Below, piece after piece: positions 1 to 20,743 of a DNA stretch of 50,931 bases. How positions within the stretch are numbered: the first letter of the stretch is position 1; every line of letters begins with the position of its first letter. The notes beneath the pieces are model-generated. The model did no database searches, had not been told where the DNA came from, and worked only from the letters and a program-made list of their open reading frames with translations. Origin of the DNA: Alphaproteobacteria bacterium (lineage in GTDB: Bacteria > Pseudomonadota > Alphaproteobacteria > UBA6615); assembly GCA_003230015.1 (NCBI GenBank), contig QIGO01000189.1:1-50931 (forward strand), given 5' to 3'. A program made the position numbers and the translations under genes.

Positions 1-212
1 ATAGCAATCCGCCGCTTCGACAGCCCGCCGGCATGAAGCCGCAGAACCTCGCCTATCTTGCGCATGGGCAATCTCTCCCGGGGCATCCTCGTTCCTCTCA
101 AAAAGGCGCGAAGGTAGCCCCTGTCAGGATCACCCAACGAGGTCGATCACATCGCCAATCCGACTGGCCGCTTTGGATCGGAATCAGTGGCCGCATTGCG
201 TCGGAATGCGCA
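1..212 (-). mobile_element. istA: IS21-family element, left end plus start of istA (runs off the window)
   Basis: Minus strand from 86 reads MPRERLPMRKIGEVLRLHAGGLSKRRIA, an IstA-type N-terminus. The end at 212 reads TGCGCATTCCGACGCAATGCGGCCACTGATTCCGATCCAAAGCGGCCA, with the repeated ATTCCG..GCGGCCA units typical of IS21 termini. Confidence 0.85.
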
Positions 213-358
213 TCCTCACCGCCACCGGATACAACTTCAGCGTCCTCATCCGATGGTTCGAGGCCCTTTTGCGTGCCTTGATTAAGGTGCTCCTCAGAAC
301 ACCTTTTGTCGCTCAGATCGTCTGAAAACTCACCAACACTGATTCTTCACGGCCGACT
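212..358 (+). pseudogene. IS5-family transposase 3' remnant with right end
   Basis: Frame from 212 reads ILTATGYNFSVLIRWFEALLRALI...* (stop 323-325), resembling the IS5 C-terminal 'ILAAAGYNFRLLLRWL' motif. It is followed by an IR-like TTCTTCACGGCCGACT. Confidence 0.7.
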
Positions 359-545
359 TGTTAAGAAGCGTGTTTGGTCATTCTGAGATCGGCCAAACCC
401 GAGGCGTTTTCCGAACGTCAAGCACGTTAATCTGACTGGGCGTTGATCTTGCGGATTCCATCAGGGCCAACGGTCAGCGCACCGCAGCGATAAGGCCGGA
501 AACATGACGACGCCCCCGGTGTTGCAAAGGGCCGGTCCTGCCATG

Positions 546-2054
546 TCACCTGCCCTCATCTATTTGACTTGATGCTTGTCTCAATCGACGAGGGTCAACC
601 GAATCGTCTTTTGGATAGAACGGCCGCTCTAAGCTCCGCCATGTCAGCCCTCGGAGGTCGGGTGTGGTGGGTCCCTTGGTATCCAGGACGAACGCGCCCG
701 CGGCAAATGGATATGTCAGGCGGTAGTTCATCGGATTCTTGACAGAGACAAGTCGGGCGGCTTGCACATCCAATCCCGCCGCCCTATAGGATTCGTAGCC
801 CCATTCATATGCCGCGTAGGTCGTGACCAGTACGCGCGTTTCCTTGACCGCGAGAACAACGCTTGGGCCCATTGAGGCGGTAACGCCTCCAAGAAAGCCC
901 CCATCATAGGTAAACTGGCCGTCGAAAACGCGTTCAACTGTCGCCGTGATCGGAACGGGCGTGCCCCGCGAAGTGTTGATCCGGTTGCCGACCTCAGTCG
1001 CGATTGTTACGCCTGTGCCGGCCTTCGCGGCTTGCTCAGCGGCAACCGGATCGACAAGGTGCACGAGCGAACCGGCATTTGGCGCGAGCCTCAGCAATGC
1101 CTCAAGGAGGGCCGCTCCATCTCCGGTCGAGCCACCACCGACACAATCCGACGTGTCGGCGAGAATCACCGGCCCATTTCCAATCGCGAGCGCGGCGCGG
1201 ATCGCGTCATCGACAGGGACCGTTTCGACCTCAAAAGCATGGCGGCGCTCCCAGGCTTCGGATGTAATTTTATTGGCGACCGCCTCCGCGGTGGCGACGT
1301 CACCGTTCGAGACAACCACCGCCGCGAAGCCCATGTCGGGCACATCAAGCCAGGGCTGGACAGGGAAATAGCTGACGGCGCTAATCGGTCCATCGTCGTT
1401 CTCAAATCCGCGCGCGATCCGGTCGAGGTCGACCATCGGTCCCGCACCGGAGGTGTGCTCAAGGTGAGGCGCAAACAACATTGGGAGCTTGGACACCGCC
1501 ATAACCGGCTGCATCCGTCCTTCGATGGTATCCACAAGGCAACGGACGGCGCGCGCCGCGGTTTCCGGTGCATCGTCATGGGGGTAATGTTGATAGCCGA
1601 TCAAGATGTCGCAGTTGGCGAGCATCGCCGGGGTTATGTTGCCGTGAAGATCGCAGCTGATGGCGATCGGCGCCGAACCGGCAATCGAGCGGACCTCGGC
1701 CAGCAACTCACCTTCGACATCGTCGGCACCTTCGGCCATCATCGCACCATGCAGCGCCAGAAACACGCCGTCGAATGGCGCCGACGTGTTCAACCGATCA
1801 TCTCTAAGCGCTTGATGGCAATTGCGCTCGACGATGCCGCCCGCGCCGCCATGGGTCGCAAGGAGCGGCGCGATACCGACGCCGGTTCTTTCGAGTTCCG
1901 CGATTGCGCCACCCATTTCGGTGCGTGTACCGGAGAGACGCCCGACGAGATTTGGACCGGTCTCAAGGTATTTGTTGCGGAAATCCTGCATTCCGGCTCG
2001 GGCGACACAGAAGGCGTTGCTCTCTTGCATCAGCGCGCCGAGGGCGACCCTCAT
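546..2054 (-). CDS. MlrC-family (M81) metallopeptidase/amidohydrolase
   Basis: 502 aa with motifs QESNAF, LHGAM, DLHGN, YPHDD, D..GGG.GD and a C-terminal RPFYPKD. Confidence 0.9.
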   Translation of the reverse strand: MRVALGALMQESNAFCVARAGMQDFRNKYLETGPNLVGRLSGTRTEMGGAIAELERTGVGIAPLLATHGGAGGIVERNCHQALRDDRLNTSAPFDGVFLALHGAMMAEGADDVEGELLAEVRSIAGSAPIAISCDLHGNITPAMLANCDILIGYQHYPHDDAPETAARAVRCLVDTIEGRMQPVMAVSKLPMLFAPHLEHTSGAGPMVDLDRIARGFENDDGPISAVSYFPVQPWLDVPDMGFAAVVVSNGDVATAEAVANKITSEAWERRHAFEVETVPVDDAIRAALAIGNGPVILADTSDCVGGGSTGDGAALLEALLRLAPNAGSLVHLVDPVAAEQAAKAGTGVTIATEVGNRINTSRGTPVPITATVERVFDGQFTYDGGFLGGVTASMGPSVVLAVKETRVLVTTYAAYEWGYESYRAAGLDVQAARLVSVKNPMNYRLTYPFAAGAFVLDTKGPTTPDLRGLTWRSLERPFYPKDDSVDPRRLRQASSQIDEGR

Positions 2055-2968
2055 GACGCGGGCGCTTGATCGTAGTCAATCGGCGTGCCATGCCACCCCG
2101 CTTCCCTTTTTTTCCAGTATAGGTCGCGCAATCGCCAGGTCACGGGTCCCGGTGTTCCGTCCGCCACTGGTTGGCCGTCAATCCTTGTGATGGGGATGAG
2201 CCCGCCCGCTGTCGTCGACAGGAAGACTTCTTCGGATTTTCTTAGGCGCTCCGCCGGAAGGGGGGCCGCCACGTATTCAAGATTGGTCTCGGCGCAAAGC
2301 TCAAATACGGTCCGTCTGGTCATGCCATCCAAGACGCCCTCGCCCGGGGTTATCAATTTGCCGTCGATCACGGCAAAAATATTGAACCCCGGCCCCTCCG
2401 TCACGTTTCCTTCGGCGTCGCTCAGCACCACGGTTTCAGCGCCGTTGTCGTAAGCTTCGAACAACCCCATTTGAAAGTCGAGCCAATGGTAGTGTTTGAT
2501 CGTCGGGTCCACCGATGTTGCTGGAACTCGCTGGATGCCGCTGACAAAAAGATGCAAGCCCTGCCGTTGCTGCTCGGGGGTCGCCACCCAGATATAGGGC
2601 ACGCAAAAAACGTAGAATTGGTTGGCGCATTGCCTTGGGTCGCGTACACCGGCCGGCGGCACGCCGCGCGTCATAATAATTTGCACATAGGCATCGCGAA
2701 AACCGGCCCTGCGCACGCATTCGATTACGACCTTGCGCCGCCCCTCCTCGTCGAATTCCCCGCTCATGCGCAACTTTGCGATGTTGCGCTTGAATCGGGC
2801 GAGATGGTCGTCAAGCCGGAAGACGACCCCCTTCCATACCGATATGGTGTCCTGGTTGGCGTCGGAACGTAGAAAGCCCCAATCGAGAAGCGGTATCCGG
2901 GCCTCCTCGATGGGGACGTAAGTTCCATTGATGAAGGCAATGCCCTTGCTGAAGTCCCCTTCAATCAT
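2051..2968 (-). CDS. PLP fold-IV aminotransferase, (R)-selective amine transaminase-like
   Basis: PLLDWGFLRSD, FRLDDHLARF, AYVQIIMTRG, DPTIK (catalytic Lys), EGPGFN, LDGMTR, STTAGG. ATG at 2968 has a GGAGG RBS; 3001 is an alternative start. Confidence 0.88.
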   Translation of the reverse strand: MIEGDFSKGIAFINGTYVPIEEARIPLLDWGFLRSDANQDTISVWKGVVFRLDDHLARFKRNIAKLRMSGEFDEEGRRKVVIECVRRAGFRDAYVQIIMTRGVPPAGVRDPRQCANQFYVFCVPYIWVATPEQQRQGLHLFVSGIQRVPATSVDPTIKHYHWLDFQMGLFEAYDNGAETVVLSDAEGNVTEGPGFNIFAVIDGKLITPGEGVLDGMTRRTVFELCAETNLEYVAAPLPAERLRKSEEVFLSTTAGGLIPITRIDGQPVADGTPGPVTWRLRDLYWKKREAGWHGTPIDYDQAPAS

Positions 2969-3005
2969 AACTGTTCCCTCCAGTGCGCGGTCTGCCGCCA
3001 TCCTC

Positions 3006-4286
3006 TCATAAGAAAACGAGCGTCAAGGGCGGAACGAAAGCGACGAGCAGTATCGCTATGATCATGATCGCCATCCACGGCAAGGCAGCGACCGCCACTT
3101 TCACAAGTGGGGCGCCCGCGATATTGGCTCCAACGAACAGGCAGATACCAACAGGTGGCGTGATGAGTCCAAGATTGAGCGCCATAATCATGAAAACACC
3201 GAAATGGATCGGATCCATTCCGATACCAAGGGCGACGGGAAGTAGGATAGGCAGCAAAATGAAAAGCGTTGATGTCGCGTCAAGGAACATGCCGGTGACG
3301 ATCAAAAGGCCCAACATGGACAATATGATTACCGAATCGGAGCCACCGCTCGACAAGAGCAGGTTCGATACGAATCCCGGAATGCCCTGCGCGTTGATGA
3401 TCCAAGCGAAGAGGGTGGCCGTCGCAACGATGAACATCACGGAAGTTGCGACGACTGCGGCACGTTCGAAGATGCGCGGCACGTCGCGCCAGGTGATGTC
3501 CCGGTACACATAGATGGCAATAAACAGAGCGTAGAGTGTGACGAAAATAGCCGACTCCGTCGGCGTGAAGATGCCGAGACGGATCCCACCAAGTATGAGC
3601 ACCGGCGCAATCAGCGCCCAGCCCGCGCGCAGGGTAGCTTTACCCAGGGGCTGCCGCGCGATGGCTTGGGTCGATCCATAACCCCGCAGCCGCGACAGAA
3701 GGACCGCGCCGGCGGCGAGTAGGACAGTAATGACCAGTCCCGGCACGACACCAGCCAAGAATAAGTCGCTGATCGATTGCTTTGCCAGGACGCCGTAAAG
3801 AATGAGCGCGATCGACGGCGGTACGAGGTTAGCGGTCGTCGATGCCGCAGCGATCAGCGAGGCCGTGAAGTGACGCGGGTAGCCGTGCCTATCCATCGGT
3901 TTCGACATTATTGAGGTGACTGCCGCCGTTTCCGCCGCCGCCGAACCAGTCAATCCGCCGAACAAAAAACACGTGAAGACCGATGTGATGGCGAGACCAC
4001 CCGGAATTCGACCGAACAGCGCATTGAAGAAGTCCACTAGCCGAGAGCCGATCGAACTTTCCGAAATGATCGTGCCCGCAAGAATAAAGAAAGGAATGGC
4101 CAGCAACACGAAGGAGTCGAGGGAGGTCATGATCATTTGGACGCTAAGCTCGATCGGAGCAATGTCGAACAGCAACAGTGTCAGCGCCGCGCTGAGCCCG
4201 AGGCAGATAGCGATCGGCAACCCACCCGCCAGAAACAGGAACATCAGTCCGAATAGAGCTGACGAGACGATTACCTGCTCGCTCAT
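3006..4286 (-). CDS. dctM: TRAP transporter large permease
   Basis: Hydrophobic protein with LLAIPFFILAG, PPSI, TPTES, DPIHFG and TPPVG. ATGA overlap with the dctQ stop. Confidence 0.93.
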   Translation of the reverse strand: MSEQVIVSSALFGLMFLFLAGGLPIAICLGLSAALTLLLFDIAPIELSVQMIMTSLDSFVLLAIPFFILAGTIISESSIGSRLVDFFNALFGRIPGGLAITSVFTCFLFGGLTGSAAAETAAVTSIMSKPMDRHGYPRHFTASLIAAASTTANLVPPSIALILYGVLAKQSISDLFLAGVVPGLVITVLLAAGAVLLSRLRGYGSTQAIARQPLGKATLRAGWALIAPVLILGGIRLGIFTPTESAIFVTLYALFIAIYVYRDITWRDVPRIFERAAVVATSVMFIVATATLFAWIINAQGIPGFVSNLLLSSGGSDSVIILSMLGLLIVTGMFLDATSTLFILLPILLPVALGIGMDPIHFGVFMIMALNLGLITPPVGICLFVGANIAGAPLVKVAVAALPWMAIMIIAILLVAFVPPLTLVFL

Positions 4287-4798
4287 CGTGTCCCCCGCCA
4301 TGCCGGCAGGATTTCCACCTGGACGATCCGAATGATGCTTAGAAAGCAGCCGAGCGGGACAGACGCGGTTAGCAACGCCGCCGGAAAACCAACATTTGTC
4401 ACCGCGTCGATGCGAAGTTGAAACTGCGCTACTTTGACTGCCGAATAGGCGAGGTAGATGAGAAACGCAATCGCGAGTAGCCAGACCAGGACGAGATAGA
4501 CGCGCCGGACGGTTCCACTGAGGCTGTCGGGTACCAAACTGACGTTGATGTTCTCGCGATACCGGAAGGTCATCGCCAACGAGAGGAACACCAGCACAAT
4601 GAACATATTCGGCAGCAACATCTCGGTCCGGGATATCGGAAGCGGAATCGCGTATCGGTTGACGATCTGAGCCGTGCCGGTCACGAGCATGGCAACGAAG
4701 ATTAAGGTCACAAGCCCGCGTTCAACGCGGTCAACGAGTGGCGGCGCTTGTCGCTCCGGCGTTTTATCGTTTTGGCTGCTGGGCGGCGGATCTATCAT
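4283..4798 (-). CDS. dctQ: TRAP transporter small permease
   Basis: About 170 aa, four TM segments, QIVNRY motif, located between dctP and dctM. Confidence 0.88.
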   Translation of the reverse strand: MIDPPPSSQNDKTPERQAPPLVDRVERGLVTLIFVAMLVTGTAQIVNRYAIPLPISRTEMLLPNMFIVLVFLSLAMTFRYRENINVSLVPDSLSGTVRRVYLVLVWLLAIAFLIYLAYSAVKVAQFQLRIDAVTNVGFPAALLTASVPLGCFLSIIRIVQVEILPAWRGTR

Positions 4799-4831
4799 GT
4801 GGTCTTCCAACTGCGTCCGGTCGCGGGTGGA

Positions 4832-4873
4832 GGCGGCGCCGCCTGTCCGAGTGGCGGCGCCGTCCGTCCGAGT
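4832..4873. repeat. 2x21-bp imperfect tandem repeat able to form a hairpin, in the dctP-dctQ intergenic region
   Basis: GGCGGCGCCGCCTGTCCGAGT then GGCGGCGCCGTCCGTCCGAGT (2 mismatches). The GGCGGCGCCGCC core is self-complementary. Confidence 0.7.
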
Positions 4874-4911
4874 GGGAGAATGGGCGGGAGCAGTTCGAAC
4901 TTGAACGGCCC

Positions 4912-5934
4912 CTAGCGACCGAGTTCGGCGCGTGCCTTGTCGGCCTCGGCGATGGCCAGCGCAATGATGTCCGCGCCGATGACGTCGTTGAACTGGCTGT
5001 ACAATGGTTGCAGGAGCTGGCGGAACTCGTTGATCGCCTCCGGTGTCGGCCGGAGCACTTCCATGCCGAGTTTCTCCAACTCAGCCGGTAGATCGATATC
5101 CTGCTGTATTGCGATCGCCCGTTGCTCGAGGACGGCGTTGCGCGCCTCTTCAAGGAGCACGGTCTGGAACTCCTCGGACAGGCTGTCGAACTTGTCTTTG
5201 TTTATCAGGATATTGAATGGGTCGTAGACGTAGTTCCATTGGGTCACGTAGTCCTGCACCTCGTAAAGCCGGAACGACATGATGGTCGAGAAGGCATTCT
5301 CCTGGCCGTCGACGGCGCCTGTTTGCAGAGCCTGGAAGGTCTCCTGCATGTTCATTGTGACCGCTTGCGCTTCCATCGCCTTGAAGGCCGCGAGGAACAC
5401 TTCCGTTCCGGCAACGCGCAGTTTCAGTCCCTTGATGTCGGCGGCGGTGGCGACTGGGCGCTTGCTATTGGTCAATTGCCGGAAGCCGTTAATGCCCGTA
5501 CCGAGCGACTTGATGCCGTATTCCTCGTACCAACTCGCCGTCGCATCGCCAAGCGGTCCATCGATGACCTTAATGGCGACCTCATGATCTTCGATAAGGA
5601 AGGGCAAGCTGTACACATCGAAGCGGCGATCGACGAAAAGGCCGGCGATGATGGTTGAAAGGAGGGACATGTCGATGATCCCGGCGCGCAGCAGTTCCAC
5701 CTCCGTCTTGAAGCTGCCGCCCGCCAGCGTGTGGTTGGGAAAGAGCTCGATCTTAAGCCGCCCGCCGGTACGTTCCGCGACGCGCTCCGCGAGAATTTTG
5801 CCGGCGACAAAGACGTGGCCATCGGGCCGGTCATTTGCCGACAGCCTGAGCGTAACCGTTTCTTGAGCGAAGGATTGAGCGGAAACAGAAATCATTCCAA
5901 GTACCGCAACTCCTAATAACAAAATTTTGCGCAT
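4912..5934 (-). CDS. dctP: TRAP substrate-binding protein
   Basis: Signal peptide MRKILLL...AQ after an AGGAGG RBS. Motifs NGFRQLT, DIKGLKLRV (carboxylate-binding Arg) and LQTGAVDGQEN. Confidence 0.93.
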   Translation of the reverse strand: MRKILLLGVAVLGMISVSAQSFAQETVTLRLSANDRPDGHVFVAGKILAERVAERTGGRLKIELFPNHTLAGGSFKTEVELLRAGIIDMSLLSTIIAGLFVDRRFDVYSLPFLIEDHEVAIKVIDGPLGDATASWYEEYGIKSLGTGINGFRQLTNSKRPVATAADIKGLKLRVAGTEVFLAAFKAMEAQAVTMNMQETFQALQTGAVDGQENAFSTIMSFRLYEVQDYVTQWNYVYDPFNILINKDKFDSLSEEFQTVLLEEARNAVLEQRAIAIQQDIDLPAELEKLGMEVLRPTPEAINEFRQLLQPLYSQFNDVIGADIIALAIAEADKARAELGR

Positions 5935-6026
5935 GGTCTTTCCTCCTGTTGGTCGTCGGTAATTCGCCTGGTTGTGCACGTTGGTTCACGCTTTCCCAGA
6001 CATTGAAGTAGCAACCGGTTCGGGCG

Positions 6027-7031
6027 TCATGCCGGTCGTCCACCACTTTTCGGTCGGCGAACCACGTTTTCCAGTGGTGCGCCACGAGCGAAGCGATCTA
6101 GATTCTCTGCAATTTTTTTCCATCGGCGGGAAAGCATTCCCTCGGTCCAAGCCGCGACATGAGGTGTCATCAAGACATTGGGCAATTCCGAGAACGGATA
6201 CCGGGACGGGCGCGGCGCTGGGTCATCGTCATCGGGATAACGCCACCAGACGTCAAGAGCGGCGCCGGCGATCTTGCGATTGGACAGCGCCGCAAAGAGA
6301 GCCGATTCGTCGACTATTTCTCCCCGGGCGATATTGATCAGGACTGCGGAGTCTTGCATCAGCGCCAATCGGCGCGCATCGATCAATCCGTGCGTTTCAG
6401 TCGTGAGCGGACAGGCAATCACAACAAAATCGCAACGCGGCACCATGGTATCGAGCGCGGGCATGCGTCCGGACCATTCAAGAACGGGATCGTCTGATTC
6501 CCGCCGCGATACCGCAACCACGGTCATGTCGAATGCGGCCGCCTTTTTGGCGACGGCCTGAGCGATTCTTCCATAGCCGACCAGACCGATCGTCGCGCCC
6601 GCCAGCTCCCCATGCAGGGGGCCGAAGGAGACGTGGCTGCCGCTCCAGTCGCCGCCGCGGAAATTTCCGTCGAGTCCGCGGAGATCAATGCGGAGTTCGA
6701 GCATCGCCAGGAGGACGAATTCGGCCACGGCGGTTTCATGCTCGAAAACGTTGCAAACGGTACATGTCTCGGGGATGGCGCCCCAATCGACGGCATCGGT
6801 GCCGGCATTTGGAAGCTGAAGAAACCGCAGCTTGACCGCTTTTCGACCGAGGCTTTGGTTCCAGCCTTGCGAAATGGCGGCTTCCGCCGTGGACAGTGTA
6901 TCCATCAACATGCAGTCGGAATCCTGAAGCGCGACTGTTCGGATCTCCCATGGCGTTGTCAGAGATGCTGCAAGGCGGTCGACGTTGCGGGTGGCGTAGG
7001 GATTGACGAGAACACAGCGCATGGCGGTCAC
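6027..7031 (-). CDS. D-isomer-specific 2-hydroxyacid dehydrogenase
   Basis: [36 protein letters not shown] start overlaps the SDR stop (GTGA). Confidence 0.9.
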
Positions 7032-7759
7032 ATCCCTACGCCGCCCGAAACCTTGATCACCTCGCCGGTGATGTAGCTGGACGCCGGAGAACAAAGAAAG
7101 GCGACGGTCTCCGCCATGTCGCGCGGCTGCCCCATGCGCGGGATCGGGTAGTCCTCGATACCGTAGTCATAGCCGTGCATCACCGCCGAGGTGAGTACGG
7201 GCCCCGGTGCGACGGCATTGACTCTGACGCCCTGGCGGCCGTATTCGCGCGCCGCCCACTTGGTCAGGCCAATCAGGCCCGCCTTCGCCGCGGCATAGGC
7301 CGGCCCGGATCTTCCATCCTGCCCCTTTGCCGGAAGGCCGCCAATGACCCCGGAAATAGAGGAGATATTGACGATGGCGCCGGTCTCGGCTGCCAGCATG
7401 TATGGCAGCACCGCACGCATGAAGAAAAACGCGCCGGAAAGGTTCTTGTTCAGCTCAGCGAACCACACCTCGTCGGGCAGGTCTACAAAGCCGGTGCGTG
7501 CGCCGCCGCCGGCGCAATTCACCAAAATATCGATACGCTTGTGAAGGTGGTGCGCTTCGACAACCGTCGCGGCTACGGTCGAGGAGTCGGTTACGTCGCA
7601 AACCAATGACAACACGGCGTTCGCGACCTCCGCCTCGATGAGGTCGACGACAACGACGCGTGCGCCACGCTTCGTTAGGGCTGACGTAATGGCTCCACCG
7701 ATATGCCCCGCACCGCCGGTGACGATGGCAACCTGGCCGTCGAGATCGCCGCCGGTCAT
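7028..7759 (-). CDS. Classical SDR oxidoreductase
   Basis: [28 protein letters not shown]. Confidence 0.92.
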
Positions 7760-8730
7760 GGCGCCACCATTTCGCGAATTGCTTGCTCGATATTCTGTTG
7801 CGACACCCGATAGGCGGCTTCAAGGGGCGGGGAGAACGGGACCGGCGCCCTCGGCGCGCCCAGACGCCGCGGCGGCCGGCAGAGGTCCCCGTGGACATTC
7901 TCGACAACCGTCGCGACGATTTCCGCGCCGAGGCCGCAGACCTGAACGGCTTCGTGGACGACCAGTAGCCGGCCGGTCTTTTTCACCGAGGCAAATACGG
8001 CGCCCGTATCCCACGGCCACAGCGAACGCAGATCCAGCAATTCGACGTCCGTGCCGGTCTCGACGCAGGCCTCCACCGCCTTGTGTGCAACCGACGCCAT
8101 AGTTGACCAGGTAACGACCGTAACATCGCCACCCTTCCTGACAAGGCGCGCCTCGCCAATTGGGACGCAGTGGTCGCCCTCGGGAATCTCGCCCGTGTTT
8201 TGCCATATGGCGCGGGGTTCGATGAAAATGACGGGGTCTTCGCATCTGATGGCCGATTTCAAAAGGCCCTTGCAGTCGGCGGCAGTCGACGGCGCAAGAA
8301 CGACGAGGCCCGGTACGTGGACGTACCAGCTTTCAAGTGATTGCGAGTGCTGCGCGGCCGATCCCGTCACCATTCCCTGCGGCAGACGCACGACAACCGG
8401 AACCCGCGCCTGCCCGCCAAACATGAAGCGGGCCTTGGCGATCTGGTTGACCAGTTCGTCGATCGCCGAAAGGGCGAAATCGGCAATGCGCATTTCCACG
8501 ACCGGTCTCGTACCGGCAAGGGCCCCGCCAAGCCCGGCGGATACGATCATCGCTTCCGAGATCGGAGAAGCGACGATGCGGTCGGGTCCGAACTCGCTGA
8601 TTAGGCCGCGGTATTGTCCGTACAGGCCGCCGATGTGGAGGTCCTCGCCAACCGCCCAGACCGTTGCGTCGCGCCGCATTTCCTCGGCCAGGCCGTCGCG
8701 AACGGCCTCAAGGACCGTCTGCGTCGTCAT
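7756..8730 (-). CDS. ThDP-dependent 2-oxoacid/acetoin dehydrogenase E1 beta-like subunit
   Basis: [41 protein letters not shown]. Confidence 0.92.
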
Positions 8731-9710
8731 GCCGGGGCTCCGATGTCCTGGACTTCCGCATAGATGCTCGCGGGTTCCGGGAAGACTGCCTCGCGGGCAG
8801 CTACCAGCGCCGCCGCTATTTCCGTCTCAACCTCCACCTGAAGACGCTGCACATCCTGGGACAAATTCCAGTCGGTCAACCGCTGTCGCATGAGGAGAAT
8901 CGGGTCACGGAGCTCCTGGCGGGAGTGCCTCTCCGCGTCGCGATAGGCGCCCTGGTCGGCGATAGTGTGCCCGCGAAGGCGATAGGTCTGAGCATGAATG
9001 AACGCAGGTCCGCCCTCGCGACGGAGCCGCTCGACCATCGCTGCGGCTGCGTCGGCCACGGCCAACACATCGTTGCCGTCAACGACCATGCTTTGGATGC
9101 CAAGAGACTCGGCGCGGGCCGCCGGACCCGCGCCCGCCGTCAGGCGCGCGGTCTCGGTAAAAGCCGCGTAACCGTTGTCTTCGCAAACGAAGAGGACAGG
9201 CAGCCGAAAGGTGGCCGCCCAGTTGAGCGACTCCAGGAAGGGTCCGCGATTTACCGCGCCGTCGCCGAAGAAGCAGGCCGTAACCGCTTCGCTTCCGCGG
9301 ACGCGCAGCCCCTGAGCCGCTCCCACAGCTATCCCGAGGCCGCCGCCGACAACGCCGTTCGCTCCAAGCATTCCGGCGGAAAAGTCGGCGATGTGCATCG
9401 ATCCGCCCTTGCCTTTGCACGTGCCGGTTACGCGCCCGAAGAGTTCCGCCATCATTGCTGAAAGCGATGCCCCTTTGGCGATCGAATGGCCGTGGCCACG
9501 ATGTGTGCTTGTGATGAGATCGGCCGGCTCAAGCGCAGAGCAGACGCCCGCAGCGACAGCCTCCTGCCCGATCGACAGATGTAGGGTGCCTGGAATCTCT
9601 CCGTCGCGCTGCGCGATCTCGGCGGCCTCCTCGAAGCGCCGAATGCTGAGCATCGTCCTGTGGAGCGCGAGCGCCCGCTTGCGCTCGTTGTTGTTGTCGA
9701 TGTCCGTCAT
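8727..9710 (-). CDS. ThDP-dependent 2-oxoacid/acetoin dehydrogenase E1 alpha-like subunit
   Basis: HLSIGQEA, STHRGHGH, GKGGSMH, GDGA...CEDN (ThDP motif), TYRLRGH. Confidence 0.92.
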   Translation of the reverse strand: MTDIDNNNERKRALALHRTMLSIRRFEEAAEIAQRDGEIPGTLHLSIGQEAVAAGVCSALEPADLITSTHRGHGHSIAKGASLSAMMAELFGRVTGTCKGKGGSMHIADFSAGMLGANGVVGGGLGIAVGAAQGLRVRGSEAVTACFFGDGAVNRGPFLESLNWAATFRLPVLFVCEDNGYAAFTETARLTAGAGPAARAESLGIQSMVVDGNDVLAVADAAAAMVERLRREGGPAFIHAQTYRLRGHTIADQGAYRDAERHSRQELRDPILLMRQRLTDWNLSQDVQRLQVEVETEIAAALVAAREAVFPEPASIYAEVQDIGAPA

Positions 9711-10519
9711 GCTGCCGTGACTTCGCGCGGGCGGCGCATGGGGTCCAACCGCTGCGCGATCACGTCTGCTTCGCGTTGGAGCATCGACACGACTTGCATT
9801 CGCCTCTCAGGTTGCATGCGTTCGGAAATCGCCGCGACGCTAAGCGTCGCTACCGGCAGGCCGTCCTTGCCAAGAACAGCGACGGCGACGGCACTCATTC
9901 CGCTAACAATCCGTCCGCCGTTGAATGCGTATCCCTGGGCCCGCGTCTCTTCGATCTGTTGATAGATATCGGAAACGTCGAACCCCGAGAGAGCGGACTC
10001 ACGTGCGGCGTTGATCTCGATGGCTTGCCGCAACTCGCTGTCGGGTAGGGCGGAGAGAAGAGCGAGACTGCCCGACCCGATGCCGAGGGGCCGACGGTCA
10101 CCGATATTGAGCGTCAGAGTCCGAATGGGAAACGAGCCAACCTGCCGGTCAACGCAGACGGCCTCGTACCGGTCCATGATCGACAGGAACACGGTATCGC
10201 CCGTTTGCCGGGCAAGCGCGACGAGGCTCGGTCGGGCCAACTCAATTATGTCCAGCCGACTCTGTGCGGCCATTGCGAGCGTATAGACCTCGAGGCCCAG
10301 CCGGTAGCGCCGCGTCGCCGCGTCCTGCTCGACGAAGCCGAGGTCTAGCAACGCATTGATCAGGCGGTGGGTGGTTGTCTTGCCGAGGCCGATCGCCTGC
10401 GTCACCTCGGCCAAGCGCGTTCCCGCGGTCCCCGCATGGGCAAGGACGCGCAGGATCGTTGCCGCCCGATCCAGGCTTCGGACGCCACTCCGCCGGTCGA
10501 TCAGTTTGCTCTCCGGCAT
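9707..10519 (-). CDS. IclR-family transcriptional regulator
   Basis: N-terminal HTH (SLDRA..IL, LGKTTTHRLINAL, RYRLG) and C-terminal effector domain (TGDTVFL, GSGSLALL, GYAF). Confidence 0.93.
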   Translation of the reverse strand: MPESKLIDRRSGVRSLDRAATILRVLAHAGTAGTRLAEVTQAIGLGKTTTHRLINALLDLGFVEQDAATRRYRLGLEVYTLAMAAQSRLDIIELARPSLVALARQTGDTVFLSIMDRYEAVCVDRQVGSFPIRTLTLNIGDRRPLGIGSGSLALLSALPDSELRQAIEINAARESALSGFDVSDIYQQIEETRAQGYAFNGGRIVSGMSAVAVAVLGKDGLPVATLSVAAISERMQPERRMQVVSMLQREADVIAQRLDPMRRPREVTAA

Positions 10520-10573
10520 TTCAACTCCCTAGACAACGAGGACATTATGCGTTACGGATAGTGGAACTCGAGA

Positions 10574-10602
10574 ACCATAATACAGAACAAAAGTGTTGTC
10601 AA
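10574..10602 (-). promoter_or_regulatory. Putative sigma70 promoter of the iclR-led operon
   Basis: Minus strand TTGACA (10602-10597), 17-bp spacer, TATGGT (10579-10574), about 55 bp upstream of the iclR start. Confidence 0.55.
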
Positions 10603-10671
10603 AGCCATGAAACCCGCAATATCTAGGCCGTTGGCGAGGGAATTGGTCCTATTGGGTCCATATTTTGGCAC

Positions 10672-11511
10672 ATGGCGGGAGGGAAAATGAGGAACGGGGC
10701 AATCCTCCTGGCTGACACGGCGACCGTGCTCGGGCCGCTATTCGCCAACGCCATCGTCATTTGCGGGTCTCACGGCGGTACCTTTCCGGGTTGCCTTGTC
10801 GCCCAGGCGGGCTGCCGCGGGGCGATTTTCAACGATGCGGCCATCGGAATGCAGGCCGCGGGAATCGGATCGCTCGCGCTCCTAGAAGGGCTTGGTTTGC
10901 CGGGCGCGGCTGTCGACCACTGTAGTGCGCGGATCGGCGACGCGGCCGACATGCAAGCGCGCGGCATCATTTCGCGGATCAATACTTCCGCGGAAGTATT
11001 CGGCTGTGCCGTTGGCCAGACCGTCGCCGAATGCGCGAAACGGATGTCGCGCGGCGCACCGCGCCTGTCGTCGGCGCCCGATATCGCCGAACAGCGCGTG
11101 CTTGTCGCGGAAGGGGGCGGTGTAAAGGTCTGGGCGCTCGATTCGGCGTCACAGGTTGTGGCCAATGATGCTGACGCCATTCTTCTGACCGGCTCTCACG
11201 GCGGCTTGGTTGGCGGGCGGACATCCGCAGTACTGAAAACGAGCGCGCGCCTAGCGGTATTCAATGATGCGGGCGTCGGCGTCGATCGAGCCGGCATCGG
11301 AAGGCTGGCGGCGCTTTCGGCGCGCGGCATTCCTGCCGCCACGGTCTCCGCTGAAACGGCGCGCATCGGCGACGGCGTTTCGACCTACGAGGACGGCATC
11401 ATTTCGTTCCTCAACGAGCCTGCTCATTTGCTCGGTGGGCGGCCGGGTCAAGCGGTGCGTGAATTTGTCACCGCGCTTCTTCATCGCGTTTCCTCGGAGG
11501 CGACGAGTTGA
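10672..11511 (+). CDS. Hypothetical protein made of two tandem homologous domains
   Basis: Both halves carry GSHGG, FNDA.G...AGIG.L, ARIGD and GIIS..N. The stop overlaps the next start (TTGA). Confidence 0.85.
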   Translation: MAGGKMRNGAILLADTATVLGPLFANAIVICGSHGGTFPGCLVAQAGCRGAIFNDAAIGMQAAGIGSLALLEGLGLPGAAVDHCSARIGDAADMQARGIISRINTSAEVFGCAVGQTVAECAKRMSRGAPRLSSAPDIAEQRVLVAEGGGVKVWALDSASQVVANDADAILLTGSHGGLVGGRTSAVLKTSARLAVFNDAGVGVDRAGIGRLAALSARGIPAATVSAETARIGDGVSTYEDGIISFLNEPAHLLGGRPGQAVREFVTALLHRVSSEATS

Positions 11512-13265
11512 ACGAGGTTCAGGAAGCCATGCCTCATGGGGCAATACCAATGAATGGCGGCCGCCTCATCGCTGAGATGGTGAAGGCCCACGGCGTTGGT
11601 CCAATGTTTGGGATGGGCGGATTTCAGCTCCTGCCCTTCTACGAGGCGATCCGTCAACTCGGTCTTGAGCACTACCTCGTGAATGACGAGCGAACCGGCG
11701 CGTTCGCCGCCGATGCTTATGCGCGCGTTTCCGGGCGACCCGGGGTGTGCGACGCGACGCTTGGCCCCGGCGCGACAAATCTCGTCACAGCCCTCGTCGA
11801 GTCGTTGAATGCGGGCATTCCACTTGTCGTGTTTGTGGGGGACACACACCGCCGCCACGCCGGGCGCAACATGACCCAGGAAGCGCGCCAGACGGAAATC
11901 CTGCGCCCCGCCGTAAAGGAATTGATCCGCGTGGAAATGGTCGAGCGGATTCCGGAACTTGTGCGTCGCGCGTTCGCCTTATCGACCGCCGGCCGACCCG
12001 GTCCGGTTGTGCTCGACATTCCGGAAGACGTATGCCACGGCGAAGCTTTCATATCGCGCGCCGAAATCTATGCAGGTTCCGCTGCGGTCGCCGTTCCGGC
12101 CATGCGCTGTCGGCCCGATGCTGACGCGATTACCCGTGCCGCCGCTCTTCTACAGGACGCCGAGCGGCCCTTAATTCTCGCGGGCGGCGGCGTTCATCTT
12201 TCCCGTGCCGACGGCGTGCTGACGGAGTTCGCCGAGACATTCGGTATTCCGGTAGCTCACACAATGAGCGGCAAGGGAGCCATTGCGTGCACCCACCCGC
12301 TATCGGTTGGCCTGTTCGGGCGGTATAGCCGAATCGCCAATGATTTGATCGCATCAGCGGATTGCCTTCTGGTCATCGGCTGCAAACTTGGCGAAATCGC
12401 GACGCGCCGGTATTCGCTTCTGCCTAGCGGGACCTCGCTCATCCACCTCGACATATGTCCGGAGGAATTCGGGCGGACGGCTCGCGCGACGATCGCGCTC
12501 TTGGGGGACGCGGCCGCAGGCATTTCCGATCTTCACGAAGAGCTTCGCGAAACGGCTGCAGCGCAAAAGACGAAGCGGGCAGGCATCGCCCGCGACATTG
12601 CCGACCGGATGGCGGTTTGGCGCGAGGGGGCACGCCAAAGAACCCATTCCGACGAAGAGCCAATCAATGTCGCCCGCATTGTTCAAGCCTTCAACGAGGT
12701 GCTTCCGGCCAATGCACTGCTGATAGCCGACGGCGGCTTCGCGGCACACTGGACCGGCCTTTTTTACGATACCAAGAAAAGTGGCCGGACCTACCTTCCT
12801 GATCGTGGATTTGCCTCGATCGGCTACGGACTTCCGGGGGCGCTGGGCGCGTGGCTCGCAGTGCGCGACAGGCCCGTTGTCGCCATCACCGGCGATGGCG
12901 GATTGAACATGACGCTCGGAGACCTTGAGACCGCCCGGCGGGTCGGTGCGGCCATCGTAATCTGCGTCGTAAACAACGCTGCATCCGGTTACGTCAAAGC
13001 GCTGCAGCATTCGGTGTACGGGCCGGGCCACTACCAATCATCGGATCTTGAGGAAACGAATTACGCCGAGGTGGCGCGAGCAATGGGCTGCGCCGGTATT
13101 CGTGTTGAGCGGCCTGCCGATTTGTCGGCCGCATTGGTAGAGGCCCTCGCCGAACGAGGGCGGCCGACTGTTATCGACATAGTTTCGACGCGCGACCCGG
13201 CCGCAATGCTGCCGGGAGTCGATACCCGCGCGCTCGTTGTGGAGGCTGGTGACCGACCTATCTGA
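11508..13265 (+). CDS. ThDP-binding enzyme, acetolactate synthase/decarboxylase-like
   Basis: NDERTGAFAADAYAR (catalytic Glu), GPGATN, GRPGPV.LDIP, and the GDGG...NN ThDP motif. Confidence 0.9.
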   Translation: MNEVQEAMPHGAIPMNGGRLIAEMVKAHGVGPMFGMGGFQLLPFYEAIRQLGLEHYLVNDERTGAFAADAYARVSGRPGVCDATLGPGATNLVTALVESLNAGIPLVVFVGDTHRRHAGRNMTQEARQTEILRPAVKELIRVEMVERIPELVRRAFALSTAGRPGPVVLDIPEDVCHGEAFISRAEIYAGSAAVAVPAMRCRPDADAITRAAALLQDAERPLILAGGGVHLSRADGVLTEFAETFGIPVAHTMSGKGAIACTHPLSVGLFGRYSRIANDLIASADCLLVIGCKLGEIATRRYSLLPSGTSLIHLDICPEEFGRTARATIALLGDAAAGISDLHEELRETAAAQKTKRAGIARDIADRMAVWREGARQRTHSDEEPINVARIVQAFNEVLPANALLIADGGFAAHWTGLFYDTKKSGRTYLPDRGFASIGYGLPGALGAWLAVRDRPVVAITGDGGLNMTLGDLETARRVGAAIVICVVNNAASGYVKALQHSVYGPGHYQSSDLEETNYAEVARAMGCAGIRVERPADLSAALVEALAERGRPTVIDIVSTRDPAAMLPGVDTRALVVEAGDRPI

Positions 13266-13366
13266 AGGTCGAAAGAAGGGAGTTGAAAGATGGCATGCCT
13301 CACTTTGTGGCTGGGGAGGTCAGTGTGGCACTGGGCTGAGGCCTCCCGATTGAGGAACGTCGGGAA

Positions 13367-13564
13367 GTGACTTTCGGCGTGCTCCCCGAAGATCTAGCGC
13401 TCTGCGATGCCGGCGCGCTCTCTGTTATTCGGGCGGTCGTCGAGCAGGGCTTAATGCCGCGTGTCGGCGATTCGGTGGGCTTCTTCGTGCGTGACGTTGC
13501 GACTTTGCACCTTTTCGATAATCTAGCTCCCGGTCAACCCGCGATCGCTCGAGTGATCGCATGA
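13367..13564 (+). pseudogene. Probable C-terminal (TOBE-like) remnant of a sugar ABC ATPase
   Basis: VTFGVLPEDL...LHLFD resembles GLRPEDI...VHLFE and GVRPEHV...VHFFD in the intact ATPases of this window. The stop overlaps the SDR start (ATGA). Confidence 0.5.
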
Positions 13565-14358
13565 CCGGTGCCCACCACGAAAAGGTAGCATTAGTCACAG
13601 GCGCGGCGGGCGGTATCGGGCTTGCCACGGCTGAGCGCCTCGGCCGCGAAGGCGCCGCCGTCGTGCTCGTCGACAATCAAGTTGAGCCGCTTCAGCGAGC
13701 TGCGGCCGCGATGGTCGCGCAGGGGCAAACGGTACTGGCCGTACCAGCCGATATCGGAAAGGAAGACGAGGCACTCGGCTGCGTCGACGCGGCGGTAGAC
13801 GCCTTCGGCCGGCTTGATATCGTCGTCAATGCGGCGGGCATTCAACCCTACGGAACGGTGGTTGACACCGACCTTGCAGATTGGGAGCGCGTCTTCGCTG
13901 TGAACCTCACTGCGATTTTTTTGATCTCCAAGCGGGCAATTCCGATGATGCTGGCACAGGGTGGAGGTGTGATCGTTAATATCGCCTCCGTCCAATCGCT
14001 CGCGAGCTCGGCACGTGTAGCCGCCTACGCGGCGTCAAAAGCCGGTGTTCTAGGATTGACCCGGTCGATAGCTGTCGACCATGCCCGCGACGGGATCCGC
14101 GCCAACGCAATCTGCCCCGGCTCCGTCGATACGCCGCTGCTCCGTTTTTCCGCCGAGGCAAACCGCGGCGATCGCAGTGTGGAGGACATGATTGCCGGTT
14201 GGGGGGCGATGCATCCGGTCGGTCGCGTCGGACGCGCCGAGGAGATTGCCGGATTGGCGTCATACCTCGCCGGTCCGGACGCCGCGTTCATCAACGGCGC
14301 CGCTATTACGATCGATGGCGGCGTCATGGCGAAGCTCGGCATCGTGCTCCCGGAGTAA
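13561..14358 (+). CDS. Classical SDR oxidoreductase
   Basis: TGAAGGIG, NAAG, NIAS, YAASK, ANAICPG. Confidence 0.92.
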   Translation: MTGAHHEKVALVTGAAGGIGLATAERLGREGAAVVLVDNQVEPLQRAAAAMVAQGQTVLAVPADIGKEDEALGCVDAAVDAFGRLDIVVNAAGIQPYGTVVDTDLADWERVFAVNLTAIFLISKRAIPMMLAQGGGVIVNIASVQSLASSARVAAYAASKAGVLGLTRSIAVDHARDGIRANAICPGSVDTPLLRFSAEANRGDRSVEDMIAGWGAMHPVGRVGRAEEIAGLASYLAGPDAAFINGAAITIDGGVMAKLGIVLPE

Positions 14359-14362
14359 TGAC

Positions 14363-15622
14363 ATGCATTTGGGATGCATCGCAGACGACTTCACCGGAGC
14401 AAGCGACCTTGCCAATACTCTCGCCAAGGGGGGCATGGCGACGACGCAATTCGTTGGCGTGCCAGGCGGTGCGGCGCCACGCGACTGCGAGGCCGGGGTC
14501 GTGTCGTTGAAAACCCGGTCGGTCGCCGCCGACAAGGCGATCGCGGAGAGCATTGCGGCGCTGGAATGGCTGCGGCGGCAGGGATGTCGCCAGTATTTCT
14601 TCAAGTATTGCTCCACCTTCGATTCAACGCCGGAGGGCAATATCGGCCCGGTCGCGGAAGCAATGGTGAATGCCATCGATGCTGCTGTGGCGGTCGTGTG
14701 TCCTGTGTTCCCGGCAACCGGGCGGACGCTCTACTCGGGACACCTCTTTGTCGATGGGAAGCTGCTGTCCGAATCAGGGATGGAAAATCACCCGCTCAAC
14801 CCGATGACGGACGCAGACATCCGACGCTGGCTGAGCTTGCAGACGCATGGCGACGTTGGCCTTCTGCCTTACGATGTGGTGCGGCAAGGCGCCGCCGCCA
14901 TTCGCGTGGGACTTGGGGCCGAAGCGGCCGCGGGGCGGCGGCTGGTAGTAGTCGACGCGCTTACGGACAACGATCTGATCGAAATCGGCGTGGCGGTGGC
15001 CGACGACAAGCTGGTGACTGGCGGCTCCGGAATTGCCCTCGGACTCCCGAATAATTTCCGCAAGTCAGGGCTGATTCATGGCAGCTCCATCGCTTTTTCG
15101 GGTGCCAAGGGGTCCGGGGTCGTCCTGTTGGGGTCATGTTCGGCGACCACGCGCGGCCAGGTCGCCGCCCACCTTGAGGACCATCCCGGCCTAGCCGTCG
15201 ATCCCGACGATTTGTCGTATGGCACGATCAACGCCGACATGGCCGTCGCCTTCGCCCACGATCGGATCGATCGATCGCCAATCATCTATACCACCGCCGA
15301 ACCGGCCGATGTACGGGCCGCCCAAGAACGCCACGGCCGCGAAGCGATTGCCATGACGATCGAGGCGTTCTTCGGAGAAGTGGCCAAACAGCTGGTGGCT
15401 GAGGCCGGCGTGACCCGTATCGCGGTTGGCGGTGGCGAGACCTCCGGCGCTGTCGTTAATGCGCTTGGACTGGAGTGGTTCCGCATAGGCCCCGAGATCG
15501 ACCCCGGCGTGCCGATACTTTCCGCCGAAGGGCGACAGCCGGTGCATCTCGCGCTAAAGAGCGGAAACTTCGGTAGCAGCGATTTCTTTGCGAAGGCGCT
15601 TGGCGCAATGGGGGGTTCATGA
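14363..15622 (+). CDS. otnK: 3-oxo-tetronate kinase (four-carbon acid sugar kinase, DUF1537 family)
   Basis: LGCIADDFTGASDLA, FKYCSTFDST..GNIGPV, HPLNPMTD, GGETSG, LALKSGNFG. Start placed at ATG 14363 rather than 14192. Confidence 0.88.
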   Translation: MHLGCIADDFTGASDLANTLAKGGMATTQFVGVPGGAAPRDCEAGVVSLKTRSVAADKAIAESIAALEWLRRQGCRQYFFKYCSTFDSTPEGNIGPVAEAMVNAIDAAVAVVCPVFPATGRTLYSGHLFVDGKLLSESGMENHPLNPMTDADIRRWLSLQTHGDVGLLPYDVVRQGAAAIRVGLGAEAAAGRRLVVVDALTDNDLIEIGVAVADDKLVTGGSGIALGLPNNFRKSGLIHGSSIAFSGAKGSGVVLLGSCSATTRGQVAAHLEDHPGLAVDPDDLSYGTINADMAVAFAHDRIDRSPIIYTTAEPADVRAAQERHGREAIAMTIEAFFGEVAKQLVAEAGVTRIAVGGGETSGAVVNALGLEWFRIGPEIDPGVPILSAEGRQPVHLALKSGNFGSSDFFAKALGAMGGS

Positions 15623-15733
15623 GCGAACAAGACCTTTGTCAGGCGCGGCTTCGTTTCATGGTACGGACGGCGGTCCATCCGCGCGAAGTCGAATGCGAGC
15701 CCACAAGCGGCGATCGGTCAACAGGGAATCGGA

Positions 15734-16789: not shown

Positions 16790-16876
16790 CGCCGAAGGAA
16801 AGGAGAAGCGTGGCAGGGAAAAGAAACGAATACAAATTGCAGAAATTCAATCGTCAGATCCTGAGGAGGAGAGATC

Positions 16877-17896: not shown

Positions 17897-17901
17897 GGTT
17901 G

Positions 17902-17937
17902 TGGGGGAACTCGGGCGTTCCGGTTCCCCCATTTTTT
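17902..17937 (+). terminator. Hairpin plus T-run after the binding-protein gene (terminator or mRNA stabiliser)
   Basis: TGGGGGAAC...GTTCCCCCA stem followed by TTTTTT. Confidence 0.65.
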
Positions 17938-17997
17938 CCGAATAGGTCCGAGAATTTTGGATCAAGTGAGCGCAGGGACCTTGAGAGGGTGGACAAT

Positions 17998-18753: not shown

Positions 18754-18856
18754 GTATTGTGCCTGATGAAAATATGATCGGGCACATGGCGCTTGGCAAC
18801 GGAACCTCCGACGGGATCGAGTTCCTTGGGAGCTTGCGTAGTCCTCTGAGCAATCT

Positions 18857-19075: not shown

Positions 19076-19080
19076 CCTAG

Positions 19081-20732: not shown

Positions 20733-20743
20733 CCGCAGGCAAT

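Follow-up and report, generated by a model that had tools for sequence, protein, structure and literature searches.

The question raised by this locus is whether twelve adjoining genes, at positions 546 to 13265 of a contig from an uncultured alphaproteobacterium, serve a single catabolic pathway and, if so, for which kind of compound. They encode a tripartite ATP-independent periplasmic (TRAP) importer, an M81-family metallopeptidase of the type of the microcystinase MlrC, a fold-type IV transaminase, two dehydrogenases, two thiamine diphosphate (ThDP)-dependent enzyme systems, an IclR-family regulator and a 279-aa protein. The stretch that we analyzed (the window) is the whole 50.9-kb contig, which belongs to a metagenome-assembled genome of 3.07 Mb in 244 contigs that is 74.6% complete. 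A first-pass annotation had proposed that the genes form one system for the catabolism of an amide-linked organic acid. Our analyses show that region 546-13265 is a discrete unit and a real gene cluster, probably for the breakdown of a small amide-linked acid. The reading that we tentatively favour, to which we give slightly less than an even chance, is that this 12.7-kb block is one IclR-controlled catabolic cluster built of two layers, in which an imported amide-linked amine or acid would be fed to a ThDP core.

Family assignments were derived from Pfam and NCBIfam scans of the open reading frames (ORFs) of the window, and structural relatives from sequence searches of the PDB. According to the ORF listing, ten of the twelve genes are co-directional on the minus strand and two lie on the plus strand (Table 1). 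All twelve ORFs, including the divergent pair, were found in the order and at the coordinates at which the first-pass annotation had placed them, and the scans bore out each of its enzyme-family assignments. The coordinates give 4-bp start/stop overlaps for iclR/E1alpha, E1alpha/E1beta and E1beta/SDR (short-chain dehydrogenase/reductase). The fourth overlap of the annotated chain (GTGA), between the genes of the SDR and the D-isomer-specific 2-hydroxyacid dehydrogenase (2-HADH), also holds, provided that the latter starts at GTG 7031; the in-frame ATG at 7022 is an alternative start. Two further 4-bp overlaps join the transaminase gene to mlrC, and the 279-aa gene to the gene of an acetohydroxyacid synthase (AHAS)-like ThDP enzyme. 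There are spacers of 101 bp between dctP and dctQ and of 47 bp between the 2-HADH gene and dctP. The best sigma-70-like site within bases 1-14000 (TTGACA-17-TATGGT, 10/12 matches) is located on the minus strand at 10602..10574, upstream of iclR, in a stretch of the spacer that is conserved in a genome of the same genus.

When the window was compared by blastn with that genome, the only one available for the genus, positions 545-13263 aligned at 86-88% identity and nothing outside them aligned. All twelve proteins are syntenic in the two genomes, with identities of 82-94%, and the conserved block ends precisely at the stop codons of mlrC and of the AHAS-like ThDP gene. Because the alignment covers exactly this region and nothing beyond it, the arrangement of the twelve genes is more than a matter of chance.

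Table 1. Features of the 12-gene block, with strand and supporting family matches.
Feature	Position	Strand	Family match or remark
M81 (MlrC-family) metallopeptidase/amidohydrolase, 502 aa	546..2054	-	PF07364, PF07171
Fold-type IV transaminase, assigned to the R-amine transaminase clade, 316 aa	2051..3001	-	PF01063
DctM, TRAP large permease	3006..4301	-	PF06808 E 8.5e-111; TIGR00786 380 bits (cut-off 268)
DctQ, TRAP small permease	4283..4810	-	PF04290 E 6.5e-16
DctP, TRAP solute-binding protein	4912..5979	-	PF03480; TIGR00787 208 bits (cut-off 175)
D-isomer-specific 2-hydroxyacid dehydrogenase (2-HADH)	6027..7031	-	PF02826 E 6e-51, PF00389
SDR, FabG-like	7028..7759	-	PF13561, PF00106; below every NCBIfam equivalog cut-off
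E1beta, ThDP-dependent dehydrogenase	7756..8730	-	PF02779, PF02780
E1alpha, ThDP-dependent dehydrogenase (pyruvate/acetoin dehydrogenase type)	8727..9710	-	PF00676 E 9e-66
IclR-family regulator, first gene of the minus-strand operon	9707..10519	-	PF09339, PF01614
Divergent intergenic control region	10520..10671		promoter-like site, conserved stretch
279-aa protein, two homologous halves, tandem DUF1805-like	10672..11511	+	no match in Pfam or NCBIfam
AHAS-like ThDP enzyme, 585 aa	11508..13265	+	PF02776, PF00205, PF02775

Part of the block also exists on its own. Using E1alpha as anchor, we searched 400 other genomes of the class at E <= 1e-90; its clade is present in 22 of them, at 48-59% identity, and 20 loci, covering 21 of the 26 places found, were fetched and their genes counted by tblastn. 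E1beta lies next to E1alpha in all 20 loci (52-60% identity). The 279-aa protein is encoded in 13 of them (40-49%), the AHAS-like enzyme in eight, always together with the 279-aa protein (57-65%), IclR in five (47-52%), and DctP/DctM in four (33-39%). A profile of the 279-aa family matches 27 of the same 400 genomes, and 21 genomes contain both families; comparison of coordinates by hand placed the E1alpha and 279-aa genes within ~7 kb on the same contig in 16 of these 21, the core-bearing genomes being relatives and the counts therefore not independent events. One core locus has the order IclR-E1alpha-E1beta-DctP-DctQ-DctM-ThDP-279-aa gene on a single strand, and another consists only of ThDP-E1beta-E1alpha and the 279-aa gene, embedded among housekeeping genes. 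The transporters at core loci are of the TRAP type in four cases and of the major facilitator superfamily (MFS) in two, and the remaining neighbours are diverse and do not repeat. The E1alpha/E1beta pair and the 279-aa protein are a separately conserved core in Alphaproteobacteria, often accompanied by the AHAS-like enzyme, IclR and TRAP genes.

Some loci show variants of this organization. A cultured carrier of the core, an Azospirillum strain, has it in the form E1alpha-E1beta-dctPQM-SDR. At L074 (9517-12656), the place of the AHAS-like enzyme after the E1alpha/E1beta genes is taken by a split pair resembling a ThDP decarboxylase (168 aa, no match, and 207 aa, TPP_enzyme_C), two ThDP systems again standing side by side. 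At L079 (7069-13740), which comes from the window's own family and has 41% GC, two E1alpha/E1beta pairs flank the AHAS-like gene and the 279-aa gene adjoins; the neighbours there encode an FAD-linked oxidase, a class II aldolase, a racemase, an acyl-CoA dehydrogenase, a CoA transferase and an RraA-like protein. At L067 (2161-4749), a split transketolase, with its N- and C-terminal halves as separate genes, adjoins the 279-aa gene and E1alpha/E1beta.

The E1 pair of the window resembles acetoin dehydrogenase (AcoA/AcoB as E1, AcoC as E2, AcoL as E3) and the E1 component of pyruvate dehydrogenase (PDH) in being a heterodimeric E1alpha/E1beta with the same Pfam domains. The best PDB match of E1alpha is human PDH E1alpha (E 9e-52), and its relatives are labelled either 'acetoin:DCPIP oxidoreductase' (subunit alpha) or 'pyruvate dehydrogenase E1 alpha' by their sources. 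Unlike these systems, however, both subunits score below the PDH E1 equivalog cut-offs: E1alpha reaches 304.5 bits against TIGR03182 (cut-off 393.85), and E1beta 313.8 and 310.5 bits against PDH E1beta models with cut-offs of 454 and 321, respectively. Moreover, the block contains no E2 or E3 gene; the Pfam scans found neither an E2 (PF00198) nor a lipoyl-domain protein in 546-13265, and among the neighbours scanned in the 20 loci an E2 was present only in one separate, complete PDH operon. Instead, the constant partner of this E1alpha clade is the tandem DUF1805-like protein, which is not known to belong to an Aco or PDH system described so far. The second ThDP enzyme, which contains all three ThDP-enzyme domains, scores 388.1 bits against TIGR00118 (cut-off 538.35). 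In the PDB it is closest to acetolactate synthases (E 3e-70), and its other solved relatives include BbmA and CsmA (E 1e-67 to 1e-53), glyoxylate carboligase and formolase.

The 279-aa protein has no match in Pfam or NCBIfam, nor in the PDB by sequence. It consists of two units of ~135 aa, which share 45% identity over 98 residues (E 1e-21), and all 15 sequences compared keep the SHGG, DAG and RIG residues in both halves. The AlphaFold2 model is confident (pLDDT 92.5, pTM 0.89). A Foldseek search of this model against the PDB returned nothing better than E 0.16, and the top match of VIA-align, 1QW2, covers the second half (model 132-270) with a Z of 7.9 and a root-mean-square deviation of 3.0 over 93 of 102 residues; such a Z is borderline, being common for models with no true match, and values below 8 may reflect a common arrangement only. 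1QW2 is TA1206 of Thermoplasma acidophilum, a DUF1805 (PF08827)-type protein without a known function. Relatives of the 279-aa protein score 19-30.8 bits against DUF1805 (cut-off 29.5), one of them (P0034, 30.8 bits) lying above the cut-off; in the longer family members P0046 (566 aa) and P0034 (372 aa), no second Pfam domain was detected. The weakly DUF1805-like 279-aa protein differs from DUF1805 in being a tandem duplication with invariant SHGG, DAG and RIG residues of its own and in lacking a Pfam match itself. The family is large: at E <= 0.001 it comprises 1600 representative clusters, and at E <= 1e-30 there are 477, with lengths almost always of 260-300 aa. A protein atlas search returned unnamed clusters with a minority of DUF1805 and IMS labels. 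A reading of the SHGG residues as a phosphohistidine 'swivel' domain was dropped, the only match having a Z of 4.8, which is within noise.

A complex prediction for E1alpha, E1beta and the 279-aa protein scored 0.00, where the mark is 0.32; this is no answer, and it counts neither for nor against an interaction. Members of the 279-aa family were also found on plasmids, without ThDP enzymes, the contexts on bacterial plasmids being varied, and because of this we lean towards a small-molecule enzyme more than an obligate subunit. On two haloarchaeal plasmids (L082 of Haloterrigena, 4166-15701, and L083 of Haloarcula, 3471-13359), the genes of relatives with 43-44% identity have a VOC gene on one side and those of a RuBisCO-like protein and a four-carbon acid-sugar kinase on the other, with TRAP, aldolase, SDR and IclR genes also there. 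This layout recalls the published apionate/tetronate pathways, and it hints that the 279-aa family may act on oxidised acid sugars.

We then turn to the proteins that distinguish the window from the core loci. The M81 protein matches PF07364 (E 4.2e-77) and PF07171 (E 3.4e-34), both profiles being covered in full, and in the PDB it matches 3IUU (E 7.5e-47) and 7YLQ (E 2.8e-31). In MlrC, a member of the mlr set of microcystin-degradation genes, the zinc ligands are E39, D167, H169 and H191, and E70 binds the substrate (PMC9982164). These residues align to E11, D135, H137, H159 and E46 of the window protein, so that the zinc ligands expected of the amidase proposed in the first-pass annotation are intact. 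The protein is like MlrC in its family, both Pfam domains, the four zinc ligands and the substrate-binding Glu. It is unlike MlrC in scoring only 113.2 bits against the microcystinase model NF041767, whose cut-off is 999, and in its distance from 7YLQ; judged by sequence, it is a member of the M81 family and not a microcystinase orthologue. No mlrA-, mlrB- or mlrD-like gene is present among the annotated ORFs of the window.

The transaminase reaches no NCBIfam equivalog cut-off. Among solved structures it is closest to amine or R-selective transaminases (E 1e-81 to 1e-74 for the best matches, and down to 1e-58), as the first-pass annotation had supposed in calling it an (R)-transaminase. In PMC8048526, motif 1 of the (R)-selective amine transaminases (R-ATAs) is given as [HR] at position 31, Y at 36, [VT] at 38 and [STAHP] at 40, and motif 2 as [FY]V[EANQ] from position 95. 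R45, T52 and S54 of the window enzyme fit positions 31, 38 and 40, whereas Q50 occupies position 36, which leaves motif 1 incomplete. Motif 2 is present (YVQ at 105-107), as is the RDPR loop, and a pattern search detected no motif 1 of branched-chain or D-amino acid transaminases. The signature RSDANQDT is common to all 23 aligned relatives with ~60% identity or more, two of which come from unrelated contexts, and the enzyme is for this reason to be seen as a member of a distinct sub-clade and not as a quirk of the operon. Six more distant relatives do carry Tyr36, and in five of these the signature is the canonical RSDxTYDV. The RSDANQDT sub-clade (Gln36, Thr38) is large and alphaproteobacterial, and we met no characterised member of it in this work. 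Compared with the R-selective fold-IV enzymes of Aspergillus, Arthrobacter, Shinella and other sources that serve in biocatalysis, the window enzyme thus shares the residues at 31, 38 and 40, YV[EANQ] and the RDPR loop, and differs in Gln36, the RSDANQDT signature and its catabolic-looking operon setting. Its closest solved relatives suggest that it is of the R-amine type, and activity on (R)-amines without an alpha-carboxylate is a prediction. The literature that we searched, including the available part of PMC8048526, gave no natural substrate for R-selective amine transaminases.

Translation of DctP likely starts at the Met of MRKILLL, residue 16. Its best PDB match is 4P47 (E 5e-52, 180 bits), with 4P8B, 4P9K and 4PDH also among the best. 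In 4P47, according to PMC11668362, R152, R173 and N213 bind the carboxylate and an aromatic residue at position 196 closes the site. R167, R188 and N228 of DctP align with the three former residues; the carboxylate-binding Arg noted in the first-pass annotation is therefore kept as part of an Arg/Arg/Asn triad, and Met is found at the position of the aromatic residue. At one core locus the TRAP binding protein has 4P8B as its match (E 1.7e-140); it shares 66-76% identity with its counterparts at the other three core loci and 53% with a copy on an Azospirillum plasmid. Although the window DctP falls in the same broad clade (4P47, 4P8B, 4P9K, 4PDH), it is only 34% identical to these 4P8B-type proteins; because of this low identity and the Met at the aromatic position, its ligand probably differs from theirs. 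4P8B, an EFI (Enzyme Function Initiative) structural-genomics target, was reportedly deposited with (S)-2-acetolactate bound. The review PMC5812351 does no more than list 2-acetolactate among the TRAP ligands of that structural-genomics study. The 2-HADH lies below all NCBIfam equivalog cut-offs, and it had no PDB match at E <= 1e-35, a threshold that was too strict.

The genes outside the core are distributed more narrowly among sequenced genomes. An orthologue of the M81 protein was found among 40 relatives only in the same-genus genome, the other M81 genes having at most 35% identity, and the same genome was the only one with an orthologue among the 45 other genomes of the window's order. 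M81 genes as a family are present in 11 of 41 related genomes, in up to six places in one of them. DNA-pattern scans of genome and metagenome contigs returned the same-genus contig and proteins of 36-38% identity without common neighbours; such scans need near-exact 8-residue words, which is why they missed relatives of 54-71% identity. The transaminase has a match (E <= 1e-60) in 55 of the 400 other class genomes, and of its places outside the genus we examined the 14 with the best matches (tblastn, 49-67% identity).

A large protein collection yielded closer relatives of MlrC (64-71% and 51-56% identity), E1alpha (72-75% and 60%) and the transaminase (72-79% and 63%). Linkage beyond the genus was assessed through longest contigs of equal size across the relatives of these three proteins, an approach that does not show adjacency or order (Table 2). 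The MlrC proteins of the size-matched contigs share 52-88% identity with one another, so that they must come from no fewer than four lineages outside the genus. It is very unlikely that exact five-digit size coincidences over three independent lists would arise by chance, and the combination of E1alpha, MlrC and transaminase probably recurs beyond the genus, in three metagenomic cases, although evidence of this kind is indirect.

Table 2. Contigs of equal size among the relatives of E1alpha, MlrC and the transaminase, with identities to the window proteins.
Contig size (bases)	E1alpha	MlrC	Transaminase
17252	75%	69%	77%
72138	74%	69% (partial)	75%
15102	60%	54%	63%
12063	74%	71%	
34819		68%	75%
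5413		70%	76%
3200		67%	72%
8005	72%		74%
18220	58%		66%

The analysis establishes which gene families are present, which catalytic and ligand-binding residues are kept, how the operon is laid out and that conservation falls into two layers; the substrate class, the order of steps and any role of the 279-aa protein are inferred. The first layer is the conserved core, made up of E1alpha/E1beta without E2, the 279-aa tandem DUF1805-like protein and the AHAS-like ThDP enzyme, which elsewhere in Alphaproteobacteria is found with IclR and a TRAP importer whose binding protein is a near-orthologue of 4P8B. The second is a lineage-specific add-on consisting of a different TRAP binding protein, the SDR, the D-2-HADH, the R-amine-type transaminase and the M81 metallopeptidase. 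The TRAP system would import a small amide-bearing carboxylate, the M81 enzyme would hydrolyse its amide bond, the transaminase would convert the freed (R)-amine or D-amino group to a carbonyl, and both dehydrogenases would oxidise hydroxyl groups. Finally, the ThDP core would cleave the resulting alpha-hydroxy-ketone or 2-oxo acid, as for acetoin or acetolactate; its intermediate may be an alpha-hydroxy-ketone, an alpha-hydroxy-beta-keto-acid or a 2-oxo acid of the acetoin/acetolactate type. On the most economical reading, this lineage would have joined a new importer and four funnelling enzymes to the core. The expected substrate would be a carboxylate that carries an amide bond and an (R)-amine, a D-amino acid or a beta-amino acid, and that yields a carbonyl cleavable by a ThDP enzyme.

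Several points weigh against this proposal. The full set of twelve genes has been seen directly in one other genome only, of the same genus, and the co-occurrence beyond the genus rests on equal contig sizes, not on contig sequence. MlrC, the transaminase and the 2-HADH are each absent from all 20 E1alpha loci, and the 14 transaminase loci contain no other genes of the cluster except a generic SDR (three loci) and one ThDP enzyme at 32% identity. The transaminase has Gln in place of the Tyr36 of the R-ATA motif. A strict search (E <= 1e-80, with five candidates scored per genome) found no close DctP orthologue in the 400 class genomes, so that no ligand can be read from the binding protein. 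Small acids make up most of the known TRAP ligands, and few of these ligands are amide-linked. The claim of the first-pass annotation that the genes form one amide/amine-acid system stands in part: in several other lineages, relatives of E1alpha, MlrC and the transaminase seem to lie on common contigs, but the system is not indivisible, since the core occurs without amidase, transaminase and 2-HADH, and relatives of the transaminase (49-67% identity) lie in unrelated contexts in all 14 loci.

These distributions also bear on a competing explanation, which we think unlikely though far from negligible, namely that the block consists of independent neighbouring units and that no metabolite passes from the TRAP-transaminase-M81 trio to the ThDP core. 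The core (E1alpha/E1beta, the 279-aa protein, the AHAS-like enzyme and IclR) would then serve an acetoin- or acetolactate-like compound, and the trio would scavenge peptides or N-acyl compounds containing D- or beta-amino acids for nitrogen, with the SDR and the 2-HADH belonging to either unit. That the core lacks the trio in 20 of 20 loci and the transaminase relatives lack the core in 14 of 14 is in its favour, as are the frequent, multi-copy occurrence of MlrC-family genes and the gaps of 101 bp and 47 bp at dctP-dctQ and 2-HADH-dctP. However, the ten minus-strand genes all point the same way and either overlap or stand close together, and the one good promoter-like site precedes iclR; the block conserved in the genus spans both parts and has sharp common ends; and E1alpha, MlrC and the transaminase are found on equal-sized contigs in three divergent lineages.

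A more far-reaching form of the two-layer proposal, which we regard as improbable, is that E1alpha/E1beta and the 279-aa protein constitute a new kind of ThDP system that needs no E2 and acts on acyloins and alpha-hydroxy-beta-keto acids by cleavage or rearrangement. The 279-aa protein would be an essential catalytic or acceptor part of it, and the M81 enzyme and the transaminase would have been recruited to it in this lineage for the catabolism of an amide-linked (R)-amine, a natural role for this class of transaminases.

The block could also be biosynthetic, which we judge very unlikely. In such a cluster a ThDP carboligase (the AHAS-like enzyme, E1alpha/E1beta or both) would build an acyloin, the SDR and 2-HADH would reduce it, and the transaminase would aminate the ketone to an (R)-amine or amino alcohol, while the M81 enzyme would trim or activate an amide-linked precursor or product and the TRAP system would import the precursor acid. 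The solved carboligase-type enzymes to which the AHAS-like protein is related (BbmA, CsmA, glyoxylate carboligase and formolase) would fit this, and R-amine transaminases run readily in the aminating direction. On the other hand, the combination of an IclR regulator with a TRAP importer is typical of catabolic operons, Pfam and NCBIfam detected no exporter, ligase, nonribosomal peptide or polyketide synthase, or resistance gene in the block, and the core occurs with TRAP genes in four loci, with MFS genes in two and among housekeeping genes in one. Also on the side of biosynthesis, passages of PMC8048526 deal with making amines.

Catabolism of pantothenate or pantoate is hardly credible: it would have the TRAP system import pantothenate, the M81 enzyme act as a pantothenase yielding (R)-pantoate and beta-alanine, the transaminase deaminate beta-alanine, the D-2-HADH and SDR form ketopantoate or aldopantoate, and the ThDP enzymes decarboxylate a hindered 2-oxo acid, and although the gene content offers one enzyme per chemical need and pantothenase is not known to have an assigned gene, beta-alanine is not known as a typical R-ATA substrate, and the aldehyde dehydrogenase and dimethylmalate dehydrogenase required by the classical pantoate pathway are both missing from the block. 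Solved relatives of the DctP clade were indeed crystallised with pantoate or erythronate, according to PMC11668362 and PMC5812351, but the closest of them, 4P47, is ligand-free and matches at 180 bits only, and co-purified ligands may differ from native ones (PMC11668362). Ectoine, sulfonate (Xsc-type) and myo-inositol (IolD) pathways were dropped, their marker families being below cut-off or absent in the NCBIfam scans.

The gene set was said in the first-pass annotation not to be a characterised pathway, and we likewise found no match in the literature searched, which covered few subscription journals. Neither the conserved pairing of an E2-less E1alpha/E1beta with the tandem DUF1805-like protein and the AHAS-like enzyme, nor the extension of that core by an R-amine-type transaminase and an M81 amidase, was found in it. 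The TRAP ligand study of Vetting et al. (2015) may already mention that the core is linked to acetolactate. Every enzyme family except the 279-aa protein is well known, and catabolic operons without a known substrate are common.

If the two-layer proposal is correct, the combination of E1alpha/E1beta, the widespread 279-aa family, a second ThDP enzyme and a TRAP system with a solved binding protein would provide a testable entry to an uncharacterised ThDP pathway. Industry makes heavy use of R-selective amine transaminases, and an operon joining an enzyme of this type to an importer and an amidase would offer candidate natural substrates. Microcystinase C is the only biochemically characterised M81 member that we found in the literature searched, and a second, genetically framed member would widen knowledge of the family. 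Should the proposal fail, the block would still be an ordinary catabolic operon of an uncultured alphaproteobacterium.

As to the surroundings of the block, the window and the same-genus contig (L059) both start ~550-580 bases past the mlrC stop (window 1-545; L059 1-583). The sequences beyond this stop are unrelated between the two, and the window has there a 5'-open ORF (3-281) without a family match. On the other side, positions 13561-21501 of the plus strand contain an acid-sugar cluster, which we treat as separate; its genes do not adjoin the block in the same-genus genome. It encodes a second SDR, a 3-oxo-tetronate kinase (540 bits, cut-off 350), the permease, binding protein and ATPase of a ribose-type ABC transporter, an SMP-30/gluconolactonase-type lactonase and a 2-oxo-tetronate-isomerase-like protein (292 bits, cut-off 325), and it is followed by an IS6 transposase gene at 20797-21501.

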